This document shows positions 1 to 32,000 of a stretch of 32,000 bases of DNA, one piece after another. The notes below the pieces were generated by a model. It ran no database searches. It was not told the DNA's origin and saw nothing but the letters and a program-made list of their open reading frames with translations. Positions within the stretch are counted from its first letter, which is position 1. Every line of letters begins with the position of its first letter. The position numbers and the translations under genes are program-made. The stretch comes from Mycobacterium tuberculosis H37Rv (GTDB lineage Bacteria; Actinomycetota; Actinomycetes; Mycobacteriales; Mycobacteriaceae): the NCBI RefSeq assembly GCF_000195955.2, contig NC_000962.3, positions 1,680,001 through 1,712,000 of the forward strand, written 5' to 3'.

Positions 1-629
1 GTACTGCGTTGGCCATCGGTCCGGGGACCGTCTCAGTATTGTTGCTCGCTGTGGTCGGGCGTCGCGATATCGCGGACCAGTTGTGTGCCCATATCCCGCA
101 TGGGATGGTCGAAAATCCGTGGGCGGTTGCAACGACACCGCAGCGAGTTCTCGATTACATATTCGGTCGTGTCGAGAGCCATGCAGATTACCACGATTGG
201 GTGTGCGAGCATGTGACCCCGTGGTTTAACCTCGACTGGATTACCTCTGCAAAGCTGGTGGCCGTGGTTGGCTTCCGCGCACTATTCGGTGCATTCCTCC
301 TCGGGTTGCTGTTCTTCGTTGCCACGACATCGATGATCCGCTATGTCTCCGCCGTGCCGGTCAGAACCTTCTTTGCCGAACTGCGCGGCAATCTGGCGTT
401 GCCGGTGCTGGCATCGGCATTGCTGGTTCCGCTGTTCATCACCGCTGTCGACTGGACTCGCTGGTGGGTGATGATCACACTCGACGTGGCCATTGTCTAC
501 ATCTTGTACGCGATCGACAGACCGGAGATCGAGCAACCGCCGTCGAGGAGAAACGTGCAGGTCTTCGTCTGCGTTGTGTTGGTGCTGGCGGTGATACCGA
601 CCGGGTCCGCCAACAACATCGGCAGATGA
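1..629 (+). CDS. 3' part of an integral membrane protein gene entering from the left edge (Rv1490-like)
   Basis: The frame is open from position 3 with no upstream stop in the window, and ends at TGA 627-629. The translation contains several hydrophobic helices (LFGAFLLGLLFFVATT, LALPVLASALLVPLFITAV, WWVMITLDVAIVYILYAI, VFVCVVLVLAVIPTG). Confidence 0.6.
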   Translation, partial: TALAIGPGTVSVLLLAVVGRRDIADQLCAHIPHGMVENPWAVATTPQRVLDYIFGRVESHADYHDWVCEHVTPWFNLDWITSAKLVAVVGFRALFGAFLLGLLFFVATTSMIRYVSAVPVRTFFAELRGNLALPVLASALLVPLFITAVDWTRWWVMITLDVAIVYILYAIDRPEIEQPPSRRNVQVFVCVVLVLAVIPTGSANNIGR

Positions 630-666
630 GGCACCCCGCGGGACCACCCGAAGGCGGGCATGGTGA

Positions 667-870
667 CGTAGGCCAACCGCCGCTGACATGCTTGGGACGG
701 TGATGCTGTTGCAGGCCTATTAGGGGTTGTCGGATCGGGAGCCTTGTGACCGGTTGGCCCTTGATCTGCGTTGGGAGGCCGCGGCGGGGTTGACGGTGCA
801 CGCGCCGTCGTTGCATCCCACGGTGTTGGTCGGGATGCGTAACCGGCTGCGGGCTTCGGATCCGACGTGT
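667..870 (+). mobile_element. Remnant of an IS transposase N-terminal domain (InsH/DUF772-type, IS5/IS1182-like), interrupted by an in-frame TAG
   Basis: Frame-1 translation reads ADMLGTVMLLQAY*GLSDREPCDRLALDLRWEAAAGLTVHAPSLHPTVLVGMRNRLRASDP. This fits the family pattern vLQ..eGLSDRe....l..dlrW..a.GL......fHpTvL...R.RL. The stop is at 721-723. No DDE catalytic portion follows. Confidence 0.45.
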
Positions 871-1207
871 TGGTGGATGCACCATTTTCAAATGCCGTCG
901 CGGGTCGAAACTTGGGTGCCGTCGAAGAATAACCCCACCAAAGGCCCTACATCAGCGCCGTCCTACGTTCGTGTGTCGGACAATCCTTAGTGCCGATGCC
1001 GGATATTCGGGCACTAACGGAAAAGACGTCCTCCGCGTAGAGGCTCCGTTGTTCGAGGCCCAGTTACAGGGGCAAGGTCAGTGGCCGTGACCTCTGCTTC
1101 CCGACACGAGAATGCTGGCCGACCGAACGTAGCGCGGTGCGTTGACGGCATCGAGCTGCCACGCCAAATTTGCACGCGCTGATGCGCTGACCCCGACCGA
1201 AGGTTTA

Positions 1208-1966
1208 TCAAATGAGAGCCGGCTCGCGCACAGGGTCGTCGTAACCCGGCATGCGTCGGTGCTGCCGTCGATAATTGCGGATCTCATAGACGAGCCCAGT
1301 CAGACCTAGCGCGCCCGTGCATACCGACACCAGGATCAGCAGCGGGCTACCGCTACCGGCGAACGCGTCGCCCAGGATGACCACCGCCGCGGTGCCGGGG
1401 AGCAAGCCTGCCAAGGTCGCCCAGGCGAAGGACAGGATCCGCACGCCCGAGGCGCCGGCGGCATAGTTGATCGCCGCGAACGGGACGACGGGAATGAGCC
1501 GCAGCGACAAGATGGCCAGCCAGCCTCGCTCACGCAGACGCTCGTCCAGCCGGTTGATCGCTCGGCGGCGCACCAGACTGTTCAGCTGCCAGCCGGTGGC
1601 ACGCACCAGCAGCATCGCGATTACCGCGCTAGCGGTGCTGCCGACCACCGCGATGAATACGCCCACCACAGAGCCGAACAACAGCCCGGCGGCCAACGTG
1701 AACGCGGTGCGGGGGAATGGCGGCACCGTGACGACGGTATGCACCAGCAAAAATGCCAGCGGGAACCACGCGCCCAGTGACTTGGCCCAGTCGCGCAATT
1801 CCACCGCAGTGGGCACCGGAACCAGCAGCGCGACCACTACCAGTACTGTGATTCCCACCACTGTTCCCACGATGCGCGGCAGCGACGCCTGACGCGCGAC
1901 CGCGCCGAGCGAGGTGGCGATACCGTGCACGGTTTCGGTGGTGTTGCAGATGGCGGGAGCCGTCAC
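1208..1966 (-). CDS. TVP38/TMEM64 (DedA-related, SNARE-associated) family membrane protein
   Basis: 252-aa ORF with multiple TM helices and a family-like core (VPPFPRTAFTLAAGLLFG ... LRLIPVVPFAAINYAAGASGV). Transcribed divergently from mutA. Confidence 0.8.
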   Translation of the reverse strand: MTAPAICNTTETVHGIATSLGAVARQASLPRIVGTVVGITVLVVVALLVPVPTAVELRDWAKSLGAWFPLAFLLVHTVVTVPPFPRTAFTLAAGLLFGSVVGVFIAVVGSTASAVIAMLLVRATGWQLNSLVRRRAINRLDERLRERGWLAILSLRLIPVVPFAAINYAAGASGVRILSFAWATLAGLLPGTAAVVILGDAFAGSGSPLLILVSVCTGALGLTGLVYEIRNYRRQHRRMPGYDDPVREPALI

Positions 1967-2156
1967 GTCTTCGGAGCGTACGGGGTCAACATGAATAACT
2001 CGTTTCCCCAGGCTGGCGTTTCGTCACACTCCGGCCGCGATTGCCGCACCTGGGCGTCTATATGGGCGTCCCGATCAACTAGCCTTATTAGTTAAGTGAC
2101 AATCCCGAAGCAAGCCCAAGCAACATCGCTAATTGCTGGGAAAACAGGAGCAGTCG

Positions 2157-4004
2157 GTGTCCATTGATGTACCCGAGCGTGCCGACCTAGAACAGGTTCG
2201 CGGGCGCTGGCGCAACGCGGTTGCCGGTGTGCTGTCCAAGAGCAACCGTACCGACTCAGCACAACTCGGCGATCACCCCGAGCGGCTGCTGGATACCCAG
2301 ACCGCTGACGGGTTCGCCATCCGGGCCCTCTACACCGCGTTCGACGAGCTCCCGGAGCCGCCGTTGCCGGGCCAGTGGCCCTTTGTGCGCGGCGGAGACC
2401 CGCTGCGCGACGTGCATTCCGGCTGGAAGGTCGCCGAGGCGTTTCCCGCCAACGGTGCGACGGCCGACACCAACGCGGCGGTGCTGGCCGCGCTCGGCGA
2501 GGGGGTCAGCGCGCTGCTGATCCGGGTGGGGGAGTCGGGTGTGGCGCCTGACCGGCTCACGGCGCTGCTGTCCGGGGTGTATCTGAACCTGGCGCCGGTC
2601 ATCCTCGACGCCGGCGCCGACTACCGCCCGGCCTGCGACGTCATGCTGGCGCTGGTCGCCCAGCTCGATCCCGGCCAGCGCGACACCCTGTCGATCGACC
2701 TGGGCGCCGACCCGCTGACGGCGTCGCTGCGCGATCGTCCCGCCCCGCCGATCGAGGAGGTCGTCGCGGTCGCATCCCGGGCGGCCGGCGAACGTGGGCT
2801 TCGTGCGATCACCGTCGACGGACCGGCCTTCCACAACCTGGGCGCGACCGCGGCCACCGAACTCGCGGCCACCGTCGCGGCCGCGGTGGCCTACCTGCGG
2901 GTGCTCACCGAATCCGGGCTCGTGGTGAGTGACGCGCTGCGGCAGATCAGCTTCCGGCTCGCCGCCGACGACGACCAGTTCATGACGCTGGCCAAGATGC
3001 GGGCTCTACGTCAACTGTGGGCGCGGGTCGCCGAGGTCGTGGGCGACCCGGGTGGCGGCGCGGCCGTCGTGCACGCGGAGACGTCGCTACCGATGATGAC
3101 CCAGCGTGATCCGTGGGTGAACATGCTGCGCTGCACGCTGGCGGCCTTCGGCGCCGGTGTCGGTGGCGCGGACACCGTGCTGGTGCACCCGTTCGACGTG
3201 GCGATTCCCGGCGGCTTTCCCGGCACGGCGGCCGGCTTTGCGCGCCGGATCGCTCGCAACACCCAACTGCTGCTTTTAGAAGAGTCGCATGTCGGCAGGG
3301 TGCTCGATCCCGCCGGCGGGTCGTGGTTCGTCGAAGAGCTCACCGACCGGCTGGCTCGGCGCGCCTGGCAGCGTTTCCAGGCCATCGAGGCCCGTGGCGG
3401 CTTCGTCGAGGCCCACGACTTCCTGGCCGGCCAGATCGCCGAGTGCGCCGCCCGCCGCGCCGACGACATCGCCCATCGGCGCCTGGCGATCACCGGCGTC
3501 AACGAATACCCGAACCTGGGCGAACCCGCGCTGCCGCCCGGTGATCCGACATCGCCGGTGCGCCGCTACGCTGCCGGATTCGAAGCATTGCGCGATCGAT
3601 CCGATCACCACCTAGCCCGCACTGGCGCACGGCCGCGGGTGCTGTTGCTGCCGTTGGGTCCGCTGGCCGAGCACAACATCCGGACGACCTTCGCCACCAA
3701 CCTGCTGGCGTCCGGCGGCATCGAGGCGATCGACCCGGGAACGGTTGATGCGGGCACCGTCGGGAATGCCGTTGCCGATGCCGGTTCGCCCAGCGTTGCC
3801 GTGATCTGCGGCACCGATGCGCGCTACCGGGACGAGGTTGCCGACATTGTGCAAGCGGCCCGAGCCGCCGGTGTTTCGAGGGTGTACCTCGCGGGTCCCG
3901 AGAAGGCGTTGGGAGATGCCGCACACCGGCCCGACGAGTTTTTGACCGCGAAAATCAATGTGGTGCAAGCCTTGTCGAATCTGCTGACGCGGTTGGGGGC
4001 CTAG
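2157..4004 (+). CDS. mutA: Methylmalonyl-CoA mutase small (beta) subunit
   Basis: Translation looks colinear with MCM small subunits. GTG at 2157 lies 6 nt after AGGAG (2146-2150). The longest ORF begins at TTG 2133. Stop TAG 4002-4004 directly abuts the mutB ATG. Confidence 0.9.
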   Translation: MSIDVPERADLEQVRGRWRNAVAGVLSKSNRTDSAQLGDHPERLLDTQTADGFAIRALYTAFDELPEPPLPGQWPFVRGGDPLRDVHSGWKVAEAFPANGATADTNAAVLAALGEGVSALLIRVGESGVAPDRLTALLSGVYLNLAPVILDAGADYRPACDVMLALVAQLDPGQRDTLSIDLGADPLTASLRDRPAPPIEEVVAVASRAAGERGLRAITVDGPAFHNLGATAATELAATVAAAVAYLRVLTESGLVVSDALRQISFRLAADDDQFMTLAKMRALRQLWARVAEVVGDPGGGAAVVHAETSLPMMTQRDPWVNMLRCTLAAFGAGVGGADTVLVHPFDVAIPGGFPGTAAGFARRIARNTQLLLLEESHVGRVLDPAGGSWFVEELTDRLARRAWQRFQAIEARGGFVEAHDFLAGQIAECAARRADDIAHRRLAITGVNEYPNLGEPALPPGDPTSPVRRYAAGFEALRDRSDHHLARTGARPRVLLLPLGPLAEHNIRTTFATNLLASGGIEAIDPGTVDAGTVGNAVADAGSPSVAVICGTDARYRDEVADIVQAARAAGVSRVYLAGPEKALGDAAHRPDEFLTAKINVVQALSNLLTRLGA

Positions 4005-6257
<2,253 letters not shown>

Positions 6258-16726: not shown

Positions 16727-17422
16727 TCACTGGCGACAGTACCTCAAATAGTCCGGAGCCTCGGCTCCGACGTTAAAGAGCAGATCCAGAATCGACACGG
16801 CGGGCTCGAACCCTCCCCACAATTGCTTATAATCGCGGTAGCCGTCATAATCGAACCAAGTTACCCGGATGCTAAGTTCGTCGAACACGCGCTCATCGAC
16901 ATACGAACGGGCTGAGGGGCCAGAGACATATTCGGTCGCTGCGGCCTGTTGGCAGAGGTTGGCCAGTCTCTCGGTCTTGCCGTCGGCTAATTCGTAGTCC
17001 CACGAATTTGCCAGTCGCGTGCTGATACCGAGATAACTGCAAATCGCATTCAATAGACGCCTGTTGAGTAAGGAAAGATTCGTGTGCTGTTCTTCGAGGT
17101 AAATCGGCGCGAGCCAGTCAGCGATCTCCGCAAAATGAGCGGCCGCGCTGTAGTTGAATTCTAGTGCCCGCCAGTGCGCTTTCGCCCAATCGGTGCCGTC
17201 GATCAGCGTCTCACGTATCTTTTGATGGAAACGTCCCTTCACCTGGACGGGAACAGTTATCCACTGTAACCCCTGGCTCGTTTTGATCCGATTTCTGTTT
17301 CGCCAATCACGCTTGGTATATTGCATGTCATCATAGATGATGAATTCATCGACGAATGCAATCAGGTCAAAATATCCTCGCCAAGGTATGTAATTTGATT
17401 GAACAATCGCGACTTTCTTCAA
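16727..17422 (-). CDS. WbqC-family protein (polysaccharide/O-antigen cluster associated, function unknown)
   Basis: 231 aa. [46 protein letters not shown] is the characteristic WbqC N-terminal signature. TTG start. AT-richer codon usage than the flanks. Confidence 0.85.
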
Positions 17423-17859
17423 CGCGGTGTCTCCAATTTAGAATAACAAATACGTCGCGCCCGCGACAGCTCCGCTGGAGCGAGTTCAAGCGATTCTGCG
17501 ACATATTCAATATGGTGCTCGGGAAGGCCAGGATGGGCCGCGACCCGGGGCGTCCGGTGCGCGATGAACGTCGCATCGTCTCCTGTGAGATAATTGCATC
17601 CGATCATATAGGGCTGGCTGCGGCTAGGTTGCTGGCAAAAAGATATCGCGGCCGATCCGTTTCTGGTTTTGTCTTGATGATCAAATCCGCTTCCGTTCAC
17701 GAGATCGATTCCTGGTCTTCCCCCAGCGTCGCGATGTCGATAGGTGTCGCGCTTTGTTCGTACCCGCACTACGCGGCGGCGAGAACCTCGCCACCGAATC
17801 GGGATTGGGGGGAGGATACCACTCGGTCGAGGCCCGTCACCGGCCTTCTAGCGGGTTGA
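17356..17859 (+). CDS. Hypothetical ORF (Rv1507A-like), weakly supported
   Basis: It is the longest ORF in this gap (167 aa), with no recognisable motif. Its 5' end is antisense to the first 67 nt of the WbqC gene. A competing minus-strand ORF (17419-17769) ends in a TTGA overlap with the WbqC start. Confidence 0.3.
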
Positions 17860-18094: not shown

Positions 18095-19654
18095 CTATGG
18101 GGTGTAATTTTGGCAGATTGGGCCGGGTCCCCGTGGTGAGGACTCCTCAACCGGATTGGGTAAGCATGAGGTGGTGCTGGCAGCGGTGTCCTGGTCGCTC
18201 TCCCGAGTAGGCCCGTTGTGACTGTCATGTGGGCGAGCGGGTTTGCGCGCGTAGGAGACGATGATTACTACGCACGTGACCAACCACAAGAACGGTGCCC
18301 ATGTCACCGTGGTGAAAACGAGTGGCGTGGTACCGACTACCCCTTTGGCTCCCAGCTGTCCATAGAGCGGCACGTAGAACGGCTGGCCCGGGACCGCGAC
18401 GTTGACGATGCTCAGCGCCACGGCCAAACTCACGCAGACGCCGACCGCGCGGCGGCGGTCTCCATGGGCTGCGAGTTGGTCGAATATCCCAGCACCAGGA
18501 GGCCCGTTGGGGTCTCGGGCTACCAGTGCAGCGATTGGCAAGACGAAAACGAGATAGTAGAAGGCGACGTCCGCGGGGGAGAAGGTGGCGGTGGCGAGCA
18601 ACACAATCCCCACCATGACAGGCGGGATACGGCGTCCGAGCGCCAGCACGGCGACCACGACTATGACTAGGACAGCAAACCCGATCTGCGTTCGCGGACC
18701 AGTGAGGAAACCCTCTGGGATCTTGCCCGATTGATAGTTCTTGATGCTATCGGGGATCAGCAGGAGTGCCTTGCCAAAGGACACGTTCCGCGGGTCTCGA
18801 AGCCCTCCGAACGAACTATTGAACTTGATGATGCCGTGGATCGACTGTGCGATCGTCCCCGGGAAGCCTCGTGGCCACAACAGAAAGGCTGCGATATTGG
18901 ACACCACCACGCCGGTGATCCCGATACCAGCCCACCGCCATTGTCGAGCCGCCAACAACACCACGCCGAGAACGACGAACTGCGGCTTTACCAGGACGGC
19001 CAAGATCACCGTGATGGTGGCGAGGCCCCACCGCTGTCGGGACAACGCCACGAAGTAAGCCAGCGCGATCGGTACCACGAACCCTGTCGAGTTGCCTCGA
19101 TCGATGACCCCCCACGCCGGGATGGCCGCGGCGCCCAGTGTCACGAAGATGACCACTCGCTCCAGACCACGTGCCCCCCGGGCCGCCCAGATGGCGGGAG
19201 ATATGACCGCCATCGTTAGGGCGACCAGGTAACAGATCAGCCCCAAGCGCGGCGCACCCAGCCAATGGCTGGGTAGTCCGAAAATCGCATACGGTATGCG
19301 GGCGGGGGCCCATGCAGCAACCGCGGTCGGCTGGTAATCGGCGGGTAGCGAGATCAGGTAGTCCGCGGGATTGGGTTGAATCCCGGCGGCGGCGACCATG
19401 GCGTAGTCGCTGAAGCAGTGCCGACCGATATTCATGCCCCAATCAAGCCAACAGTCCCCAGGGACTACCAAAAGAGTGGAAAAGACGTCGACCGCGTACC
19501 ACTGACTGAGGGCGTACGCCGTCGCCGCCGAAATCACCGACGCCAGCAGGATGGTGCCGAGCATGAGGGTGCGCTCGGATTGGGAGCCGATCGCCCAGAG
19601 CCGCTCCCGGCTCGCGGTCACGGCACCGCGCAACACCTCCGGGGGTCGCTTCAT
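18095..19654 (-). CDS. Polytopic membrane protein, possibly a GT-C type (DUF2029/GT87-like) glycosyltransferase
   Basis: More than 10 predicted TM helices across about 520 aa. ATG 19654 is preceded by GAGGAG with 7-nt spacing. The longest ORF runs to 19894, but its first 80 codons are antisense to a duplicated gmdA 5' region. Family call is tentative. Confidence 0.7.
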
Positions 19655-20077
19655 CTGGATTCTCCTCGGTTCTGCGCGAAACGGTAGCAGAGCGCCATGG
19701 TTGCCAACGCGGTCGCCGGGCAGTCTAGACCGGATCTTCCTCGTGGCAACCGACAACAGGACGTCGTTGCCGAAAGGGCGCTGGGCACCGACATCTAGGA
19801 TGAACCCACAGCCACGCCCCGACGTTATGCCATGGCGAAGAGCGACCGGCAGGAGCGGGAACCCAGTGAAGCGAGCGCTCATCACCGGAATCACAGGACC
19901 GGACGGCTCGTATCTCGCTAAGCTCCCGCTGAAGGGATATGTGGCCGCTGGTAGCCCGGCCGAGGTCTATTTCTGCTGGGCGACACGGAATTATCGCGAA
20001 TTGTATGGGTTGCTCGCGGTCAACAGCATCTGGTTCAATCACGAATCACCGCGTCACGGCGAGACATTCATGACTCG
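19641..20077 (+). repeat. Degenerate direct-repeat copy A of the gmdA upstream region plus 5' coding region (internally deleted)
   Basis: Aligns by eye with 22850-23657. Shared strings include gggggtcgc...tggattctcctc...cgcgaaacgg, gtgaagcgagcgctcatcaccggaatcac, gacggctcgtatctcgc, tgggcgac.cg.aattatcgcgaa and ttcaatcacgaatcaccgcg. Confidence 0.85.
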
Positions 20078-20228
20078 TAATCCTGCACCATATCGCGGTC
20101 GGCAACGAGGCGCTGATCGATGCGCAGACGCTGATGCGCCGGCCCACCCGGATAGGTATCAGTATTGGGGCGTTCCGGCCAGCGTACGAGGCGTGATCGA
20201 CCGCGCAATGGGTGTTTGCGTTGAGTAA
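19866..20228 (+). pseudogene. Truncated, internally deleted GDP-mannose 4,6-dehydratase paralog (gmd remnant; Rv1508A-like ORF)
   Basis: Translation [25 protein letters not shown] / [40 protein letters not shown] matches GmdA residues about 1-27, joined directly to about 163-202. Roughly 390 nt of the gene body is missing. Similarity is lost after about 20077. Confidence 0.85.
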
Positions 20229-21093
20229 TAATCTGAACCGTGTGAACGCATGCATGGATGGATTCCTTGCCCGTATCCGCTCACATGTTGATGCGCACGC
20301 GCCAGAATTGCGTTCACTGTTCGATACGATGGCGGCCGAGGCCCGATTTGCACGCGACTGGCTGTCCGAGGACCTCGCGCGGTTGCCTGTCGGTGCAGCA
20401 TTGCTGGAAGTGGGCGGGGGGGTACTTCTGCTCAGCTGTCAACTGGCGGCGGAGGGATTTGACATCACCGCCATCGAGCCGACGGGTGAAGGTTTTGGCA
20501 AGTTCAGACAGCTTGGCGACATCGTGCTGGAATTGGCTGCAGCACGACCCACCATCGCGCCATGCAAGGCGGAAGACTTTATTTCCGAGAAGCGGTTCGA
20601 CTTCGCCTTCTCGCTGAATGTGATGGAGCACATCGACCTTCCGGATGAGGCAGTCAGGCGGGTATCGGAAGTGCTGAAACCGGGGGCCAGTTACCACTTC
20701 CTGTGCCCGAATTACGTATTCCCGTACGAACCGCATTTCAATATCCCAACATTCTTCACCAAAGAGCTGACATGCCGGGTGATGCGACATCGCATCGAGG
20801 GCAATACGGGCATGGATGACCCGAAGGGAGTCTGGCGTTCGCTCAACTGGATTACGGTTCCCAAGGTGAAACGCTTTGCGGCGAAGGATGCGACGCTGAC
20901 CTTGCGCTTCCACCGTGCAATGTTGGTATGGATGCTGGAACGCGCGCTGACGGATAAGGAATTCGCTGGTCGCCGGGCACAATGGATGGTCGCTGCTATT
21001 CGCTCGGCGGTGAAATTGCGTGTGCATCATCTGGCAGGCTATGTTCCCGCTACGCTGCAGCCCATCATGGATGTGCGGCTAACGAAGAGGTAA
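20212..21093 (+). CDS. SAM-dependent methyltransferase (Rv1509-like)
   Basis: Motif I-like [27 protein letters not shown], motif II-like [13 protein letters not shown] and post-II LKPGA. GTG 20212; ATG 20254 is an alternative start. Confidence 0.8.
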
Positions 21094-21097
21094 TGAC

Positions 21098-21346
21098 ATG
21101 GCGCAAGCGACATCGGGCATTCGCGCGGCACTTTCGCAACCTGCTGTGTATGAGGCGTATCAGCGGATTGCGGGCGCTAAAAGCGGGCTTGCGTGGATCA
21201 CAACCGACCCCATCCAGTCGTTGCCAGGCATGCGTACTCTCGACCTCGGTTGCTGGCCAGCGGTGATACACAGCTCCCCGCCAGTGGACGTGACATGTAC
21301 GAGAGACGGCATGAGCGCGGAATGTGCGACCGTGCCGTCGAGATGA
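21098..21346 (+). pseudogene. N-terminal stub of a class I SAM-dependent methyltransferase, truncated just after motif I
   Basis: MAQATSGIRAALSQPAVYEAYQRIAGAKSGLAWITTDPIQSLPGMRTLDLGCWPA matches the common polysaccharide-cluster methyltransferase N-terminus (l..P.vY..yQ.l.Ga......i....i....g.rvLDlGCGpg). Similarity stops at about 21255. The ATG lies 5 nt after the upstream stop with AGAGG upstream. Confidence 0.5.
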
Positions 21347-22593
21347 CCGACGTCGGCGCTACGGCAGCCCCCACCGGACCTATCGCGCGGGGCAGCGTCG
21401 CTCGGGTCGGCGCGGCGACCGCGTTGGCCGTTGCCTGCGTCTACACGGTCATCTATCTGGCGGCCCGCGACCTACCCCCGGCTTGTTTTTCGATATTCGC
21501 GGTGTTTTGGGGGGCGCTCGGCATTGCCACCGGCGCCACCCACGGCCTCCTGCAAGAAACGACCCGCGAGGTCCGCTGGGTGCGCTCCACCCAAATAGTT
21601 GCGGGCCATCGTACCCATCCGCTGCGGGTGGCCGGGATGATTGGCACCGTCGCGGCCGTCGTAATTGCGGGTAGCTCACCGCTGTGGAGCCGACAGCTAT
21701 TCGTCGAGGGGCGCTGGCTGTCCGTGGGGCTACTCAGCGTTGGGGTGGCCGGGTTCTGCGCGCAGGCGACCCTGCTGGGCGCGCTGGCCGGCGTCGACCG
21801 GTGGACACAGTACGGGTCACTGATGGTGACCGACGCGGTCATCCGGTTGGCGGTCGCCGCGGCAGCGGTTGTGATCGGATGGGGTCTGGCCGGGTACTTG
21901 TGGGCCGCCACCGCGGGAGCGGTGGCGTGGCTGCTCATGCTGATGGCCTCGCCCACCGCGCGCAGCGCGGCCAGCCTGCTGACGCCCGGGGGAATCGCCA
22001 CGTTCGTGCGCGGTGCCGCTCATTCGATAACCGCCGCGGGTGCCAGCGCGATTCTGGTAATGGGTTTCCCAGTGTTGCTCAAAGTGACCTCCGACCAGTT
22101 AGGGGCAAAGGGCGGAGCGGTCATCCTGGCTGTGACCTTGACGCGTGCGCCGCTTCTGGTCCCACTGAGCGCGATGCAAGGCAACCTGATCGCGCATTTC
22201 GTCGACCGGCGCACCCAACGGCTTCGGGCGCTGATCGCACCGGCGCTGGTCGTCGGCGGCATCGGTGCGGTCGGGATGTTGGCCGCAGGGCTTACCGGTC
22301 CCTGGTTGCTGCGTGTTGGATTCGGCCCCGACTACCAAACTGGCGGGGCGTTGCTGGCCTGGTTGACGGCAGCGGCGGTAGCTATCGCCATGCTGACGCT
22401 GACCGGCGCCGCCGCGGTCGCGGCCGCACTGCACCGGGCGTATTTGCTGGGCTGGGTCAGCGCGACGGTGGCGTCGACGCTGTTGCTGCTGCTGCCGATG
22501 CCGCTGGAGACGCGCACCGTGATCGCGCTGTTGTTCGGTCCAACGGTGGGAATCGCCATCCATGTGGCCGCGTTGGCGCGGCGACCCGACTGA
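21295..22593 (+). CDS. Polytopic membrane protein (about 12 TM), possibly a Wzx/MOP-type glycan flippase
   Basis: 432 aa from ATG 21295, almost entirely hydrophobic helices with short basic loops. The context is a sugar-transfer locus. The functional call is inference only. The longest ORF starts at 21193. Confidence 0.7.
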   Translation: MYERRHERGMCDRAVEMTDVGATAAPTGPIARGSVARVGAATALAVACVYTVIYLAARDLPPACFSIFAVFWGALGIATGATHGLLQETTREVRWVRSTQIVAGHRTHPLRVAGMIGTVAAVVIAGSSPLWSRQLFVEGRWLSVGLLSVGVAGFCAQATLLGALAGVDRWTQYGSLMVTDAVIRLAVAAAAVVIGWGLAGYLWAATAGAVAWLLMLMASPTARSAASLLTPGGIATFVRGAAHSITAAGASAILVMGFPVLLKVTSDQLGAKGGAVILAVTLTRAPLLVPLSAMQGNLIAHFVDRRTQRLRALIAPALVVGGIGAVGMLAAGLTGPWLLRVGFGPDYQTGGALLAWLTAAAVAIAMLTLTGAAAVAAALHRAYLLGWVSATVASTLLLLLPMPLETRTVIALLFGPTVGIAIHVAALARRPD

Positions 22594-22849
22594 TTTGTGC
22601 CCCAGGTCGACAAATCACGCCGTCTCGTCAGTGAGCACTCCGTCCTCGGGTCCGATCCTTCCAGGAGACGTTGCAACCTGATTTGGCTCAAATTGGTGCG
22701 CACCGAGGGTCGGGCACATCGTAGGGTCGCAACAGTCACATGTGTCACTGCACCGGGCGACACCCGATGTCCCGGCTCTCAGCGACAGCTGTCTGACCTG
22801 TGGTTTTGTTCCCAAGTTGGTCGTGGCTGTGCGGGATTGGAGGTGGCGT

Positions 22850-23657
22850 GGGGGTCGCGTCGTATGGATTCTCCTCCTCGGTTCCGCGCGAAACGGCCGC
22901 AGGCGCAATGGTCACCAACTTGGCCGCGGTGGAGTCTAGCCTCACATTTTCCTGGTCGCCCCCGACAACCAGGAGGTCGCTGCAGAACGGGCGTTCCCTA
23001 CCCACATCTACTATGAAGCGACAGCGGCGCCCCGCTGTGATGGCTGAGCATGACCGACAGAGGCGGGAAGACAGTGAAGCGAGCGCTCATCACCGGAATC
23101 ACCGGCCAGGACGGCTCGTATCTCGCCGAACTGCTGCTGGCCAAGGGGTATGAGGTTCACGGGCTCATCCGGCGCGCTTCGACGTTCAACACCTCGCGGA
23201 TCGATCACCTCTACGTCGACCCGCACCAACCGGGCGCGCGGCTGTTTCTGCACTATGGTGACCTGATCGACGGAACCCGGTTGGTGACCCTGCTGAGCAC
23301 CATCGAACCCGACGAGGTGTACAACCTGGCGGCGCAGTCACACGTGCGGGTGAGCTTCGACGAACCCGTGCACACCGGTGACACCACCGGCATGGGATCC
23401 ATGCGACTGCTGGAAGCCGTTCGGCTCTCTCGGGTGCACTGCCGCTTCTATCAGGCGTCCTCGTCGGAGATGTTCGGCGCCTCGCCGCCACCGCAGAACG
23501 AGCTGACGCCGTTCTACCCGCGGTCACCGTATGGCGCCGCCAAGGTCTATTCGTACTGGGCGACCCGCAATTATCGCGAAGCGTACGGATTGTTCGCCGT
23601 TAACGGCATCTTGTTCAATCACGAATCACCGCGGCGCGGTGAGACGTTCGTGACCCG
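22850..23657 (+). repeat. Direct-repeat copy B (intact): gmdA upstream region plus first about 195 codons
   Basis: Partner of 19641-20077; see that feature for the shared strings. Confidence 0.85.
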
Positions 23658-24096
23658 AAAGATCACCAGGGCCGTGGCACGCATCAAGGCCGGTATCCAG
23701 TCCGAGGTCTATATGGGCAATCTGGATGCGGTCCGCGACTGGGGGTACGCGCCCGAATACGTCGAAGGCATGTGGCGGATGCTGCAGACCGACGAGCCCG
23801 ACGACTTCGTTTTGGCGACCGGGCGCGGTTTCACCGTGCGTGAGTTCGCGCGGGCCGCGTTCGAGCATGCCGGTTTGGACTGGCAGCAGTACGTGAAATT
23901 CGACCAACGCTATCTGCGGCCCACCGAGGTGGATTCGCTGATCGGCGACGCGACCAAGGCTGCCGAATTGCTGGGCTGGAGGGCTTCGGTGCACACTGAC
24001 GAGTTGGCTCGGATCATGGTCGACGCGGACATGGCGGCGCTGGAGTGCGAAGGCAAGCCGTGGATCGACAAGCCGATGATCGCCGGCCGGACATGA
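23074..24096 (+). CDS. gmdA: GDP-D-mannose 4,6-dehydratase
   Basis: [30 protein letters not shown] (SDR Rossmann GxxGxxG), catalytic region [12 protein letters not shown] (YxxxK) and [23 protein letters not shown] 23074. Confidence 0.95.
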
Positions 24097-25061
24097 ACGC
24101 GCACACCTCGGTCGGCCCGCTTGACCGCGCGGCCCGGGTCTACATCGCCGGGCATCGCGGCCTGGTCGGGTCCGCGCTGCTACGCACGTTTGCGGGCGCG
24201 GGGTTCACCAACCTGCTGGTGCGGTCACGCGCCGAGCTTGATCTGACGGATCGGGCCGCGACGTTCGACTTCGTTCTCGAGTCGAGGCCGCAGGTCGTCA
24301 TCGACGCGGCGGCCCGGGTCGGCGGCATCCTGGCCAACGACACCTACCCGGCCGATTTCCTGTCGGAAAACCTCCAGATCCAGGTCAACCTGCTGGATGC
24401 CGCCGTGGCGGCGCGGGTGCCGCGGCTGCTGTTCCTGGGCTCGTCGTGCATCTACCCGAAACTCGCCCCGCAGCCGATCCCGGAGAGCGCGCTGCTCACC
24501 GGTCCGTTGGAGCCGACCAACGACGCGTACGCGATCGCCAAAATCGCCGGCATCCTTGCGGTCCAGGCGGTGCGCCGCCAACATGGCCTGCCGTGGATCT
24601 CGGCGATGCCCACCAACCTGTACGGGCCAGGCGACAACTTTTCGCCGTCCGGCTCGCATCTGCTGCCGGCACTCATCCGCCGCTATGACGAGGCCAAAGC
24701 CAGTGGCGCGCCCAACGTGACCAACTGGGGCACCGGCACGCCCCGACGGGAGTTGCTGCACGTCGACGACCTGGCGAGCGCATGCCTGTATCTGCTGGAA
24801 CATTTCGACGGGCCGACCCATGTCAACGTGGGAACCGGCATCGACCACACCATCGGCGAGATCGCCGAGATGGTCGCCTCGGCGGTAGGCTATAGCGGCG
24901 AAACCCGCTGGGATCCAAGCAAACCGGACGGAACACCACGCAAACTGCTGGATGTTTCGGTGCTACGGGAGGCGGGATGGCGGCCTTCGATCGCGCTGCG
25001 CGACGGCATCGAGGCGACGGTGGCGTGGTATCGCGAGCACGCGGGAACGGTTCGGCAATGA
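24093..25061 (+). CDS. epiA: GDP-L-fucose synthase (GDP-4-keto-6-deoxy-D-mannose 3,5-epimerase/4-reductase)
   Basis: [15 protein letters not shown] Rossmann motif, LGSSCIYP and [11 protein letters not shown] (S...YxxxK), and [15 protein letters not shown] overlap with the gmdA stop. Confidence 0.9.
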
Positions 25062-25789
25062 GGCTGGCCCGTCGCGCTCGGAACATCTTGCGTCGCAACG
25101 GCATCGAGGTGTCGCGCTACTTTGCCGAACTGGACTGGGAACGCAATTTCTTGCGCCAACTGCAATCGCATCGGGTCAGTGCCGTGCTCGATGTCGGGGC
25201 CAATTCGGGGCAGTACGCCAGGGGTCTGCGCGGCGCGGGCTTCGCGGGCCGCATCGTCTCGTTCGAGCCGCTGCCCGGGCCCTTTGCCGTCTTGCAGCGC
25301 AGCGCCTCCACGGACCCGTTGTGGGAATGCCGGCGCTGTGCGCTGGGCGATGTCGATGGAACCATCTCGATCAACGTCGCCGGCAACGAGGGCGCCAGCA
25401 GTTCCGTCTTGCCGATGTTGAAACGACATCAGGACGCCTTTCCACCAGCCAACTACGTGGGCGCCCAACGGGTGCCGATACATCGACTCGATTCCGTGGC
25501 TGCAGACGTTCTGCGGCCCAACGATATTGCGTTCTTGAAGATCGACGTTCAAGGATTCGAGAAGCAGGTGATCGCGGGTGGCGATTCAACGGTGCACGAC
25601 CGATGCGTCGGCATGCAGCTCGAGCTGTCTTTCCAGCCGTTGTACGAGGGTGGCATGCTCATCCGCGAGGCGCTCGATCTCGTGGATTCGTTGGGCTTTA
25701 CGCTCTCGGGATTGCAACCCGGTTTCACCGACCCCCGCAACGGTCGAATGCTGCAGGCCGATGGCATCTTCTTCCGGGGCAGCGATTGA
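25058..25789 (+). CDS. FkbM-family methyltransferase
   Basis: VLDVGANSGQYA (FkbM motif I variant) and FLKIDVQGFE (typical FkbM motif). ATGA overlap with the epiA stop. Confidence 0.85.
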   Translation: MRLARRARNILRRNGIEVSRYFAELDWERNFLRQLQSHRVSAVLDVGANSGQYARGLRGAGFAGRIVSFEPLPGPFAVLQRSASTDPLWECRRCALGDVDGTISINVAGNEGASSSVLPMLKRHQDAFPPANYVGAQRVPIHRLDSVAADVLRPNDIAFLKIDVQGFEKQVIAGGDSTVHDRCVGMQLELSFQPLYEGGMLIREALDLVDSLGFTLSGLQPGFTDPRNGRMLQADGIFFRGSD

Positions 25790-26629: not shown

Positions 26630-27526
26630 TCACCGGGTCTTGATACCGATGAAGGTGCCTCGAAGATTCGCCGCATAGGAACCTCCGAGCAACGACTCGG
26701 CGATGCTTGGTTCCAAGTTGTCGTACTCCTCCATCACCAGGTCGACGCCGACGTCTTTGATGGCCTGAAGTAGGTGCTCGCGTTGAATCCAGAATGACCG
26801 GCGATTGTCCCAGGACGCCCATTTTGCGGTGTCGCGCTGGCCAAACGAGCGGTCGTCGGAAAACTCGGTAAACCACCTACCGGGAAGTCCCTCATGTTCG
26901 GTGGGCGCCGAGAGCATGAACTTCACCGGCGCCGGCCGCCGCAGCAACCGATCGGTCAATTGTCGTGCCGTCGTGGGCAACCGGAGCCATTTATCGCTCC
27001 GGTTGATGATCGAGAAGTGCGTCTGGAGAATCAGCAGCTTGTTCGTTACCGACGAGAGGGTTTCCAGGTATTGCTTCGGATTCTCCAGGTGGTAGAAGAG
27101 GCCGCAGCAGAAGACGGTATCGAAGAGCCCGTGGTTGGCGATGTTGAGGGCGTTGTCGTGGACGAACCGGAGATTCGGCAGGTTGGTCTTCGATTTGATG
27201 TAGTTGCAGGCCGCCATGTTCAGCTCGCGAACCTCGATCCCGAGGACCTGAAATCCCATGCGCGCGAACCCGACCGCGTACCCGCCTTCCAAGCAGCCGA
27301 CATCGGCCAGGCGTAGGTGGCTCTTGTCCCCGGGAAAGACGGTTTCCAGAATCCCGCGCGCCGAGATGAACCAGGACGATTCGTCTAACGTGCGCGAGGA
27401 CTCCGGTATCGTCAAGGTTCCGTCGTCGAGGCGAACGTTGTGGGCGGTGAATTGTACCGCGCCGGCCGAATGTTCCTGTGCCATCACTTGGTTAGCCCCT
27501 TCGGCTGGTCCTGGGTTTGTCGACAT
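26630..27526 (-). CDS. Class I SAM-dependent methyltransferase
   Basis: Motif I variant LADVGCLEGGYAVGFARMG, then FDTVFCCGLFYHLENP. ATG 27526 lies 2 nt downstream of the preceding gene stop. The longest ORF reaches 27616. Confidence 0.8.
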   Translation of the reverse strand: MSTNPGPAEGANQVMAQEHSAGAVQFTAHNVRLDDGTLTIPESSRTLDESSWFISARGILETVFPGDKSHLRLADVGCLEGGYAVGFARMGFQVLGIEVRELNMAACNYIKSKTNLPNLRFVHDNALNIANHGLFDTVFCCGLFYHLENPKQYLETLSSVTNKLLILQTHFSIINRSDKWLRLPTTARQLTDRLLRRPAPVKFMLSAPTEHEGLPGRWFTEFSDDRSFGQRDTAKWASWDNRRSFWIQREHLLQAIKDVGVDLVMEEYDNLEPSIAESLLGGSYAANLRGTFIGIKTR

Positions 27527-27528
27527 GG

Positions 27529-28539
27529 TCAGGCTCGACAGCCGCGTCGGAGCCGGGAGGGCCACACATCCACGAGCCCCCTGCGGCTCGGCGTCGCGGC
27601 GGCGAGCTTGCGCCACTGGGTCTTGAGCCGCCGCGCGGGTGTCGCCCCGCGGTGCTGCAGCGCCAGCATGGCGATCCGGGGATGGCGCGCGATGGTTTCC
27701 TGCAGCGCGGCGCGCCCCTCCGGGCCTGGAACGTTGGCGATCTGGCGAAGGATCCAGTCGGCCATGACGGCGATGAGCTCCTCGCGCGCGGGGTCTCCCG
27801 GGAACAGGTCGAGCATCGCGTCAAACGTCGCCGCATGCCCCGGACCCTGCGTCAACCAGAACTTTGGCGGGTCCACCACCTGGTTGTGCCACATGCCTTG
27901 GGCGTGGCGGCGATACACGGCCATGGTGTCGGGCAACATGGCGATGTCGCCATGCACCGCGTGCCGGACGTGCAGATACCAGTCCAGGGGCATGACGTCG
28001 GCAGGAATGTCGTCGTAGCGCTCGAGGCGACGGTACACGGCCGAGTTGGTCTGGATGAAGTTCATCAAGATCAACGCATCCAGGCTCAAGTTGCCCCGCA
28101 CCCGAACCGGGGGGAACTTCGAGTCCTTGGCATGGCCGTCCTCCCATATCACTCGGACGGGATGGAAGCACACCGTCGTCTTGGGGTGCCGGTCGAGGAA
28201 TGCGACCTGTTTGCTTAGCTTCAGCGGATCGATCCAGTAGTCGTCCGCCTCGCACAACGCGACGTACTCGCCGCGAGCGGCCGACAGGGCGCCGGTCAGG
28301 TTCCCATTGAGGCCGAGGTTTTCGGTCCTGAAGATCGGCCGGAACACGTGCGGGTACCGCTCGGCGTACTCACGGATGATCGCCGGGGTGGCATCGGTCG
28401 ACGCGTCGTCGGCGACGATGATCTCCACCGGGAAGTCGGTTTGCTGGTCGAGAAAGCTGTCGAAGGCCTGACGGGCGTAGCCCGCCTGGTTGTGAGTGGT
28501 CGAGACGATGCTCACCTTGGGGCAAAGCTGGGGACTCAC
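27529..28539 (-). CDS. GT2-family glycosyltransferase (paralog of the gene at 31028)
   Basis: VSIVSTTHNQAGYARQAFDSFLDQQTDFPVEIIVADDASTDATPAII...ALCEADDYW. GTG 28539; the longest ORF reaches 28650. Confidence 0.85.
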   Translation of the reverse strand: MSPQLCPKVSIVSTTHNQAGYARQAFDSFLDQQTDFPVEIIVADDASTDATPAIIREYAERYPHVFRPIFRTENLGLNGNLTGALSAARGEYVALCEADDYWIDPLKLSKQVAFLDRHPKTTVCFHPVRVIWEDGHAKDSKFPPVRVRGNLSLDALILMNFIQTNSAVYRRLERYDDIPADVMPLDWYLHVRHAVHGDIAMLPDTMAVYRRHAQGMWHNQVVDPPKFWLTQGPGHAATFDAMLDLFPGDPAREELIAVMADWILRQIANVPGPEGRAALQETIARHPRIAMLALQHRGATPARRLKTQWRKLAAATPSRRGLVDVWPSRLRRGCRA

Positions 28540-31002: not shown

Positions 31003-31027
31003 CCCGACAGCGACGGATTCGCCCAAG

Positions 31028-32000
31028 GTGAGTATCGTCTCGATCTCCTACAACCAAGAGGAGTACATTCGCGAGGCCCTGGACGGCTTCGCCGCCCAGA
31101 GGACCGAGTTCCCCGTCGAGGTGATCATCGCTGACGATGCCTCCACGGACGCCACCCCGAGGATCATAGGAGAGTACGCCGCCCGCTATCCGCAGCTGTT
31201 TCGGCCGATCCTGCGGCAGACCAACATCGGTGTCCACGCCAATTTCAAGGATGTGCTGTCCGCCGCTCGTGGCGAGTACCTCGCACTGTGCGAAGGCGAC
31301 GATTACTGGACCGATCCGCTGAAGCTGTCCAAGCAGGTAAAGTACCTGGACCGGCATCCGGAGACGACGGTGTGTTTTCATCCTGTGCGAGTGATCTATG
31401 AGGATGGCGCAAAAGACTCCGAGTTCCCGCCGCTCAGCTGGCGCCGCGACCTGAGCGTCGATGCCCTGCTCGCGCGGAACTTCATCCAAACCAACTCGGT
31501 CGTGTACCGCCGTCAGCCGAGCTACGACGACATCCCGGCCAACGTCATGCCGATAGATTGGTACTTGCATGTGCGGCATGCGGTGGGCGGCGAGATCGCC
31601 ATGTTGCCCGAGACGATGGCGGTCTACCGTCGCCACGCTCACGGTATTTGGCATTCCGCGTACACTGACCGCCGAAAGTTTTGGGAGACACGAGGCCATG
31701 GGATGGCCGCGACGCTCGAGGCGATGCTCGACCTAGTTCACGGCCACCGCGAGCGCGAGGCGATCGTCGGTGAGGTGTCCGCCTGGGTGCTTCGCGAGAT
31801 CGGAAAGACACCCGGCCGACAGGGTCGCGCCCTGCTTCTGAAGTCCATCGCGGACCATCCGCGGATGACGATGCTGTCGCTACAACACCGGTGGGCGCAA
31901 ACGCCCTGGCGGCGGTTCAAGCGCCGGCTGTCCACCGAGTTATCGAGCTTGGCGGCGCTTGCGTACGCCACCCGACGGCGCGCACTCGAAGGTCGGGACG
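31028..32000 (+). CDS. GT2-family glycosyltransferase, 3'-truncated by the window edge (Rv1520-like; paralog of 27529-28539). Absent from the supplied ORF track.
   Basis: I translated this by hand from GTG 31028: VSIVSISYNQEEYIREALDGFAAQRTEFPVEVIIADDASTDATPRII...ALCEGDDYWTDPLKLSKQVKYLDRHPETTVCFHPVRVIYEDG...MPIDWYLHVRHAVGGEIAMLPETMAVYRRHAHGIWH. There is no stop before position 32000. The track instead lists an antisense ORF (30887-31699). Confidence 0.85.
   Translation, partial: MSIVSISYNQEEYIREALDGFAAQRTEFPVEVIIADDASTDATPRIIGEYAARYPQLFRPILRQTNIGVHANFKDVLSAARGEYLALCEGDDYWTDPLKLSKQVKYLDRHPETTVCFHPVRVIYEDGAKDSEFPPLSWRRDLSVDALLARNFIQTNSVVYRRQPSYDDIPANVMPIDWYLHVRHAVGGEIAMLPETMAVYRRHAHGIWHSAYTDRRKFWETRGHGMAATLEAMLDLVHGHREREAIVGEVSAWVLREIGKTPGRQGRALLLKSIADHPRMTMLSLQHRWAQTPWRRFKRRLSTELSSLAALAYATRRRALEGRD

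Follow-up and report, generated by a model that had tools for sequence, protein, structure and literature searches.

Gene content of the locus and an intergenic region present in two copies

We analysed a window of 32,000 nucleotides (nt) from Mycobacterium tuberculosis H37Rv (positions 1,680,001-1,712,000; genome coordinate = window position + 1,680,000), which lies in the lipooligosaccharide (LOS)-type/region of difference 4 (RD4) glycolipid locus. Here, the intergenic region (IGR) between the membrane glycosyltransferase gene Rv1508c and a gene for GDP-mannose 4,6-dehydratase (gmd) is present in two diverged copies in direct orientation, one next to Rv1508c (copy A) and one next to the intact gmdA (copy B). 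The open reading frames (ORFs) of the window, shifted by 1,680,000, agree with the gene coordinates printed in PMC8477398, and the genes around the two copies are the following.

16727-17422, minus strand: Rv1507c
18095-19894, minus strand: Rv1508c as annotated (599 aa), GT87-family membrane glycosyltransferase (Pfam GT87); a 519-aa form occupies 18095-19654
19866-20228, plus strand (1,699,866-1,700,228): Rv1508A, annotated, 120 aa, a chimeric ORF
20212-21093, plus strand: Rv1509, class I S-adenosylmethionine-dependent methyltransferase (Pfam)
21098-21346, plus strand: unannotated ORF
21295-22593, plus strand: Rv1510 as annotated, flippase-like membrane protein; probable start at ATG 21343
23074-24096, plus strand: gmdA (Rv1511), intact GDP-mannose 4,6-dehydratase (TIGR01472, Pfam)
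3' of gmdA, plus strand: epiA and Rv1513

A sequence-only reading of this stretch had proposed two diverged, directly repeated copies of the gmdA 5' region, about 3.2 kb apart. BLASTN recovered them as two collinear blocks on the same strand: block 1 pairs 19641-19944 with 22850-23155 (237/312 identical, 76%, 7 gap openings, E=7e-57) and block 2 pairs 19959-20080 with 23539-23660 (100/122 identical, 82%, no gaps, E=2e-31). A separate repeat search returned the same two pairs (D1 and D2). The start-to-start spacing of 3208 nt (block 1) and 3580 nt (block 2) agrees with the proposed coordinates and separation, and the difference between the two values reflects approximately 383 nt of gmdA (23156-23538, corresponding to gmdA nt 83-465) that are missing from copy A. 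In their place copy A carries 14 nt (19945-19958), the reading frame stays open, and the homology resumes at 19959, the counterpart of position 23539 in gmdA, as expected from the predicted jump to the segment encoding AKVYSYW...ETFVTR. The near-identical coding start was also found, since the longest of the identical runs (31, 21 and 18 nt) lies at the gmd start (19864/23072).

Taken alone, the two coding blocks provide little evidence for a specific relationship, since they are matched at 72-86% by gmd genes from Streptomyces, Rhodococcus and proteobacteria. It is the intergenic part that carries the decisive similarity signal. Indeed, a global alignment of the two IGRs gave 158 identical residues in 201 aligned pairs (z=28.8 versus shuffles), which is far above chance; the non-coding leader is thus shared, as had been claimed, and chance-level similarity outside the Rossmann motif is ruled out. 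Region A contains the stretch ...CATCTAGGATGAACCCA... The earlier description of the repeat as a gmd 5' region was right in that the gmd start is repeated, but the repeated unit is wider: it consists of the complete divergent IGR of about 210 nt together with the starts of both flanking genes, 1508c and gmd. As the repeat includes the first ~14 nt of Rv1508c, each copy would therefore once have been a two-gene module. The two copies and their surroundings can be broken down as follows.

19641-19654, minus strand: left edge of copy A, where the A/B alignment starts; covers the initial ~14 nt of the Rv1508c reading frame
19655-19865, no strand: intergenic region A, bidirectional promoter region (transcription start tables, A/B alignment)
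19866-19944, plus strand: block 1 of the gmd remnant (codons 1 to ~27), with the Rossmann motif GITGPDG kept; holds the 31-nt run
19945-19958, plus strand: joint of the internal deletion, 14 nt in place of gmdA nt 83-465
19959-20080, plus strand: gmd remnant block 2, gmd codons 156-196 (alignment; Pfam PF16363)
20080-20228, plus strand: 3' remnant of a hexapeptide-repeat acyltransferase gene, last 49 codons, one frameshift near 20151
21098-21322, plus strand: methyltransferase stub, the first 75 codons of a 205-aa methyltransferase, 64% identical to an intact homologue
22594-22849, no strand: spacer of 256 bp at the place of the 1508c-type gene of relatives
22850-22865, minus strand: left edge of copy B, 5' relic of a lost 1508c-type gene, start codon destroyed (alignment with copy A)
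22866-23073, no strand: intergenic region B (transcription start tables, alignment with copy A)
23074-23155 and 23539-23660, plus strand: parts of gmdA repeated in copy A

Several lines of evidence place the start of Rv1508c at the left edge of copy A. Alignments with homologues begin at the first residue of the 519-aa form, which starts at ATG 19654 and is called in some assemblies. The minus-strand sequence of copy A is ...GAGGAGAATCCAG ATG AAG CGA CCC CC..., with GAGGAG preceding the ATG. Moreover, a published transcription start site (TSS; all TSSs are from the tables of Cortes 2013 and Shell 2015) at 1,699,673(-), window position 19673, falls within the annotated 599-aa ORF, 19 nt before ATG 19654. 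The annotated start at 19894, which overlaps Rv1508A and the gmd-type promoter, is doubtful because it lies upstream of this mapped transcript start. Thus, Rv1508c probably starts at ATG 19654 (519 aa), and the annotated start is probably wrong.

Single-copy relatives and the gene missing from copy B

Loci with a single module were found in several other mycobacteria. In a Mycobacterium metagenome-assembled genome (MAG; L001) an Rv1510 homologue converges on a 1508c-type gene, which is separated by a 222-nt IGR from the divergently oriented gmdA, followed by epiA and Rv1513. Mycobacterium sp. TY814 (L031) is arranged in the same way and remains collinear with M. tuberculosis through Rv1514c, Rv1515c, Rv1516c, Rv1517 and Rv1518. 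A Logan contig (L032) carries, in this order, genes for a GT2 glycosyltransferase, a methyltransferase, a PhyH protein, a hexapeptide transferase, a 205-aa methyltransferase and an Rv1510 homologue on one strand, facing three genes and then 1508c, the IGR and gmdA, while a metagenome contig (L018) shows the divergent 1508c/IGR/gmdA-epiA arrangement. The ancestral state is therefore one module, in which Rv1510 converges on 1508c and the IGR leads to gmdA, epiA and Rv1513, and this state is kept in three other mycobacteria.

Compared with these relatives, copy B has the same flanks, with Rv1510 to its left and gmdA-epiA-Rv1513 to its right. The alignments of L001, L031 and L032 with copy A extend leftwards into 1508c; those with copy B do not. 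Homology of copy B to copy A stops at 22850 and the 1508c start codon is destroyed, such that the 1.5-kb 1508c gene of the relatives is matched in M. tuberculosis by a 256-bp spacer and a relic of ~14 nt.

The genes enclosed between the two copies also have a counterpart elsewhere. The nearest Rv1509 homologue (88%) is encoded on a 37-kb metagenomic mycobacterial contig (L010), in the order hexapeptide transferase, Rv1509 homologue, 205-aa methyltransferase and Rv1510 homologue. Window positions 20083-21321 match L010 9871-11110 at 83.6%, and 21323-22588 match L010 11714-12979 at 84.7%. Between these two stretches L010 has 603 nt more, which are the rest of the 205-aa methyltransferase gene, and the corresponding deletion in M. 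tuberculosis (joint 21322/21323) is bounded by GCGCGG microhomologies. The methyltransferase stub noted from the sequence is hence real, comprising 75 residues of the 205-aa protein with 64% identity to the intact L010 gene. Given the collinearity with L010 at 84-85%, Rv1509, the stub and Rv1510 constitute a fragment of a conserved operon rather than cargo. The start of Rv1510, whose homologues carry the source name 'O-antigen/teichoic acid export membrane protein', is probably ATG 21343 and not 21295: the N-terminal peptide TDVGATAAPTGPIAR of Shell 2015 corresponds to 1,701,343, and the alignments with homologues begin at 21343.

The search for further relatives covered several collections. 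A scan of GTDB species genomes with Rv1508c returned 9 loci, none above 69%, by a pattern method that misses moderately diverged homologues, and absence from M. marinum or M. kansasii is not implied. A metagenome scan with the same protein gave 3 short loci, one of which was useful (L018), and in a plasmid collection only generic gmd matches and no vehicle were found. In locus L008 an IS4-family transposase breaks up the 1508c/gmd module, and this locus was left out of the polarity assessment. At three loci (L013 11272-13550, L008 5339-6667 and L011 15863-17509), insertion sequence (IS) elements with DDE transposases lie at or close to the 3' side of the Rv1510 homologue, or else separate 1508c from gmd, and in M. 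riyadhense (L013) the 3' half of Rv1510 occurs twice, around the IS. This IS-bearing boundary in relatives is the boundary at which M. tuberculosis would have lost its 1508c copy.

Rv1508A as a probable chimeric pseudogene

The right end of copy A is sharply defined. Homology to L010 begins at 20083 (blastn), within three bases of the end of gmdA homology at 20080, and the joint at 20079/20080 is clean. The L010 homology opens with 147 nt from the 3' end of a hexapeptide-repeat acyltransferase gene, which directly precedes and overlaps the Rv1509 homologue in L010 and L016, and tblastn aligned the remnant to residues 194-217 and 218-242 of the hexapeptide protein of these two loci with 75-76% identity. 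Rv1508A ends at the acyltransferase's own stop codon and overlaps the start of Rv1509 by 17 nt. As judged from these alignments, Rv1508A is a three-part chimera of gmd codons 1-27, gmd codons 156-196 and an acyltransferase tail.

The chimera scored 65.6 bits against TIGR01472, far from the cut-off of 415 and the 496.8 bits of gmdA, and Pfam PF16363 recognised residues 34-72 only (model positions 158-196 of 332). The catalytic residues of short-chain dehydrogenases/reductases form a Ser/Thr-Tyr-Lys set. In GmdA, the SSSEMFG segment is found at residue 129, and Tyr153 and Lys157 lie in YGAAK. In Rv1508A the deletion of codons 28-155 includes both the SSSEMFG segment and Tyr153, and Lys157 is replaced by Glu (AKVY to AEVY). 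The Rossmann GxxGxxG motif is kept (GITGPDG versus GITGQDG in GmdA), which is insufficient for dehydratase function.

Over the 201 alignable coding nt, copy A carries 18 singleton substitutions, compared with 2 in gmdA and 3 in the gmd of L001. Copy A and gmdA differ by 12 non-synonymous and 15 synonymous codon changes, while gmdA and L001 differ by 1 and 13, respectively. The substitution pattern thus indicates that the gmd part of copy A is a decayed pseudogene under relaxed constraint. The suggested comparison with M. canettii revealed the same 120-aa chimera, with 97-99% identity, in strains CIPT 140070008 and 140070017; every step of its formation therefore predates the ancestor of M. canettii and the M. 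tuberculosis complex.

The gmd (GDP-D-mannose dehydratase) homology of Rv1508A and its apparent operon with Rv1509 have already been published (PMC3540035), and Rv1508A is annotated as a conserved hypothetical protein, with coordinates in PMC8477398. What is new with respect to these two papers is the duplicated IGR with the 1508c start, the acyltransferase-tailed chimera and the single-copy relatives. Rv1508A would accordingly be a chimeric pseudogene rather than a protein of unknown function, which is a probable correction to the annotation.

Transcription from the two copies

Published transcription maps show that both gmd-type rightward promoters are active at homologous positions. The rightward TSS of copy A, 1,699,808(+) (19808), lies 58 nt before the Rv1508A GTG with the -10 element TAGGAT, and that of copy B, 1,703,020(+) (23020), lies 54 nt before the gmdA GTG with the -10 element TACTAT. 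Both were present in two independent maps, and as 23020 aligns with 19807, the two sites are homologous within 1 nt. Copy A therefore supplies transcription to Rv1508A. It would drive Rv1509 as well, which would explain where the Rv1509 promoter comes from.

In the opposite direction, the TSS of copy A at 19673 (-10 TACCGT) serves Rv1508c, and copy B has lost that -10 element (TACCGT to GGCCGT). Copy B has a strong orphan leftward TSS at 1,702,925(-) (22925) with the -10 hexamer TAGACT, which is conserved in both copies. No gene is located downstream of this site and its transcript points into the 3' end of Rv1510. Consistent with antisense transcription, Rv1510 had 9.7 antisense versus 15 sense reads in exponential culture and 17.7 versus 8 in a second data set, taken as starved cultures, unlike Rv1509 (1.3 versus 41) and gmdA (6.3 versus 130). 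The Shell TSS table lists two minus-strand TSSs without a downstream gene, 22925 (read coverage 443) and 21600 (167.5). Together with the high antisense reads over Rv1510, these orphan sites suggest an unannotated antisense RNA. An Rfam scan of 19000-24000 returned no family, and a scan for consensus promoters gave one match (TTGCCA/TAGACT at 19749-19722, minus strand), which was not above the shuffle expectation and serves as a pointer only.

Such data could also be read as the signature of a new regulatory circuit built on the duplicated promoter. Copy A and Rv1508A would then deliver transcription and coupled ribosomes to Rv1509 through the 17-nt overlap, as in the ancestral operon, Rv1509-Rv1510 would be co-regulated with gmdA-epiA, and the antisense RNA of copy B would hold down Rv1510. 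We regard this proposal as doubtful.

Origin of the two copies

To account for the pair, the sequence-only reading had offered a segmental duplication or an insertion next to gmd, followed by decay. The duplication and the decay fit the data (sister IGRs, a decayed copy A), while the insertion is contradicted by synteny. We consider duplication of the module within the lineage, followed by complementary decay, to be the best explanation, and hold it with moderate confidence. Before the ancestor of M. tuberculosis and M. canettii, the 1508c/gmd module would have been duplicated within the LOS-type/RD4 locus, most likely by a segmental duplication. Copy A would have kept Rv1508c, with its gmd cut at about codon 196 and joined illegitimately to the last 49 acyltransferase codons; a later loss of gmd codons 28-155 would have produced the chimeric ORF Rv1508A. 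Copy B would have kept gmdA and lost the glycosyltransferase gene, of which ~14 nt and a dead start codon would be left. Copy A would now supply a promoter and leader for Rv1508A-Rv1509(-Rv1510), and the orphan leftward promoter of copy B would give an antisense RNA over Rv1510.

This scenario is in line with the relationships of the six IGR sequences, which group as ((A,B),(L001,(L031,L032))) with L018 outside. Either copy aligned with L001, L031 or L032 at z values of about 10-12, and L001 and L031 agreed at 189/220 positions. That A and B are each other's closest relatives fits a duplication. The 1508c proteins of L001, L031 and L032 share 67-74% identity with one another and 68.7-69.6% with Rv1508c; at this same distance, the gene of copy A therefore belongs to the same orthologous group as the gmdA partners elsewhere. 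The synonymous divergence between A and B is about equal to that between gmdA (B) and L001, and the split is therefore old, on the between-species scale of Mycobacterium.

Several points weigh against this reading. The sister relationship of A and B derives from approximately 200 nt of intergenic sequence in six taxa, and the tree of the 201-nt coding block did not separate the alternatives (informative site patterns 1, 2 and 0). No trace of a second Rv1509/Rv1510 set was found to the left of Rv1508c, where 17300-18250 matches Rv1507c and Rv1508c homologues only. Loss of the 1508c gene from copy B would follow from synteny; in the spacer 22594-22849, neither blastn comparison with all loci and the window itself nor tblastn with three 1508c proteins detected a 1508c relic or any similarity to a fetched locus. 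The same pattern would arise from an unsampled donor lineage near the M. tuberculosis ancestor, the M. riyadhense locus is differently arranged, and M. marinum, M. kansasii, M. lacus and M. decipiens lay outside the comparison. The operon and antisense roles, finally, would follow from TSS positions and read counts.

A tentative alternative, to which we give less credence, is that two related glycolipid clusters, each ending in 1508c/IGR/gmd, were juxtaposed by horizontal transfer and that the copies are xenologues. The left cluster, Rv1500-Rv1508c plus gmd, would have come from another mycobacterium, and a gmd-to-hexapeptide deletion would have fused the clusters. Veyrier et al. 2009 placed Rv1500-Rv1508c, Rv1509 (with Rv1515c) and Rv1513-Rv1520 in different acquisition strata, with a lower GC content of the left cluster, and both observations suit a transfer; the seam between the strata Rv1500-Rv1508c and Rv1509 falls at copy A. 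Further support comes from Rv1507c, which is 85% identical in L009 and 38% in L010 and L016, from Rv1505c, which shares only ~32% identity with the hexapeptide gene represented by the tail at 20080-20228, from the recurrence of the Rv1508c-Rv1507c adjacency in L003 and L009, and from the A-B synonymous divergence, which equals a between-species divergence. However, IGR A is nearest to IGR B and to no other sampled lineage, Rv1508c falls in the same clade and at the same distance as the gmdA-partner 1508c genes of L001, L031 and L032, and none of the 32 fetched loci had Rv1507c and 1508c in tandem followed by an IGR and an intact gmd. The joint itself (20079/20080, gmd codon ~196 to hexapeptide codon 194) is expected from a tandem duplication of the segment from the hexapeptide tail to gmd codon 196, and equally from an inter-cluster deletion.

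That Rv1509, the methyltransferase and Rv1510 entered as a foreign segment, in or next to gmd and with a target duplication, is very improbable: the copies do flank the three genes in direct orientation and Rv1509 is listed as a recent acquisition, yet the block is collinear with L010 and its left boundary is the truncated hexapeptide tail of the same conserved operon, the Rv1510 homologue is tied to the far side of 1508c in the 1508c/gmdA modules of L001 and L031 (adjoining) and L032 (three genes away), no transposase or integrase domain occurs in 18095-25789 and no terminal inverted repeats bound the segment, the repeat includes the start of a second gene (1508c) that a gmd target duplication leaves unexplained, and the copies (300+122 nt) differ by ~20-25%, although target duplications are identical at the outset, in a structure older than the M. 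canettii split.

Duplication with complementary decay matches the general model of duplication and reciprocal gene loss, in that there are two modules, each keeping a different gene, with the lost genes still visible as a gmd fragment and as a few 1508c nucleotides. It differs from that model in that the duplicated promoter region is still in use, one copy serving unrelated downstream genes. Compared with Veyrier et al. 2009 and the RD4 literature, the locus and the step-wise mosaic assembly are the same; those studies use gene presence and absence, while here the joints are placed to the nucleotide (20079/20080, 21322/21323 and 22849/22850). The repeat is thus an ordinary relic of a known evolutionary kind in a locus already known as a mosaic. 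What the analysis adds is a nucleotide-level account of one LOS/RD4 seam, with its relics, joints and single-copy ancestor; the new content is the bidirectional promoter module, the complementary loss, the chimeric ORF, the mapped joints and the active homologous promoters.

Recombination between the repeats and deletions in the region

The repeats had also been put forward as a substrate for recombination that would excise Rv1509-Rv1510. They are a poor substrate, being 76-82% identical and sharing no identical run longer than 31 nt, and no repeat-mediated deletion was found. The suggested screen for deletions or hybrid gmd junctions showed the standard arrangement in all 32 contigs with the exact GmdA protein, a weak negative as it covered 24 of 5869 index blocks. 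RD4, whose extent is given as Rv1506c-Rv1516c, and the L5.3.2 deletion, described in PMC8477398 as two blocks (Rv1493-Rv1509 and Rv1511-Rv1521), both reach far past the 3.2-kb interval between the repeats.

Accordingly, we find it hardly credible that gene conversion maintains the similarity and that the pair is a live recombination substrate deleting Rv1509-Rv1510 in some strains. The perfect 31-nt run at the gmd start in an 84%-identical context and the deletion-prone nature of the region in the complex (RD4, L5.3.2) could be cited in its favour. Nevertheless, we estimate that about 0.16 runs of at least 31 nt are expected by chance, such that the run is not significant, and the same stretch is also conserved in other species; the overall identity, the 32/32 standard assemblies and the extents of the two deletions point the same way.

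A related case lies in the neighbouring LOS region, where, according to Boritsch et al. 2016 as cited in PMC5462905, two pks5 genes recombined and the gene between them was deleted. Like the gmd repeats, these are paralogues in direct orientation in the same general genome region. In the pks5 case, as described there, the intervening gene was lost, whereas the gmd repeats are 76-82% identical and no recombinant was found.

In Table 3 of PMC8477398, Rv1510 is retained between the two blocks of the L5.3.2 deletion. This retention may be a mapping or orthology artefact of a ~75-80% identical paralogue, and the deletion may be one block.

Species specificity and likely role of Rv1509

In the literature, Rv1509 is a 'signature protein' exclusive to M. 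tuberculosis, Rv1515c is described as exclusive to the M. tuberculosis complex, and both are treated as DNA methyltransferases. We found 1217 Rv1509 homologues, including proteins with 88% (L010), 84% (L011) and 80% (L016) identity on environmental mycobacterial contigs, 81.5% on the M. riyadhense chromosome (L013), 67% in Mycolicibacterium rhodesiae NBB3 and ~60% in a gammaproteobacterial MAG. Homologues of Rv1510 at 75-82% were abundant. The proposal that the repeats give the mechanistic origin of species-specific genes consequently fails, as Rv1509 homologues at 81-88% and Rv1510 homologues at 75-82% occur outside M. tuberculosis. Rv1515c (26630-27526, minus strand) has a syntenic homologue with 79% identity in Mycobacterium sp. 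TY814 (L031 3277-4191).

Many of the 75-78% matches to Rv1510 are a core-genome paralogue located beside TerC, GT2, DUF2304, epimerase and topA genes (L014, L015 from M. kyorinense, and L017), and these were set aside as uninformative. We take this paralogue to be Rv3630 or its region. Rv1510 is the locus-specific copy of a conserved flippase-like family.

Rv1509 and Rv1515c sit in sugar-modification operons with genes for an acyltransferase, methyltransferases, glycosyltransferases and a flippase-like protein. This operon context suggests that both act as glycan or lipid methyltransferases, which bears on the papers that treat them as DNA methyltransferases exclusive to M. tuberculosis.

Other features of the window

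Another published 'signature protein', Rv1507A (17356-17859, plus strand), is encoded by an ORF in the spacer of low GC content (down to 0.47) that separates Rv1507c from Rv1508c, and this ORF overlaps the start of Rv1507c. No Rv1507A homologue was present in any fetched locus.

Further repeats were observed in the window. Short direct repeats (D4, D8 and D9) with a spacing of 1.5-1.9 kb occur in positions 1-6200, in the mutA/mutB region (1,682,157-1,686,257), and presumably reflect mutA-mutB homology. An inverted repeat of ~630 nt (27887-28521 and 31022-31653, 73-76% identity) corresponds to Rv1516c and Rv1520, paralogous glycosyltransferase genes on opposite strands whose products share 63.5% amino acid identity. 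It is a second old duplication of the locus, with a divergence like that of the gmd module.

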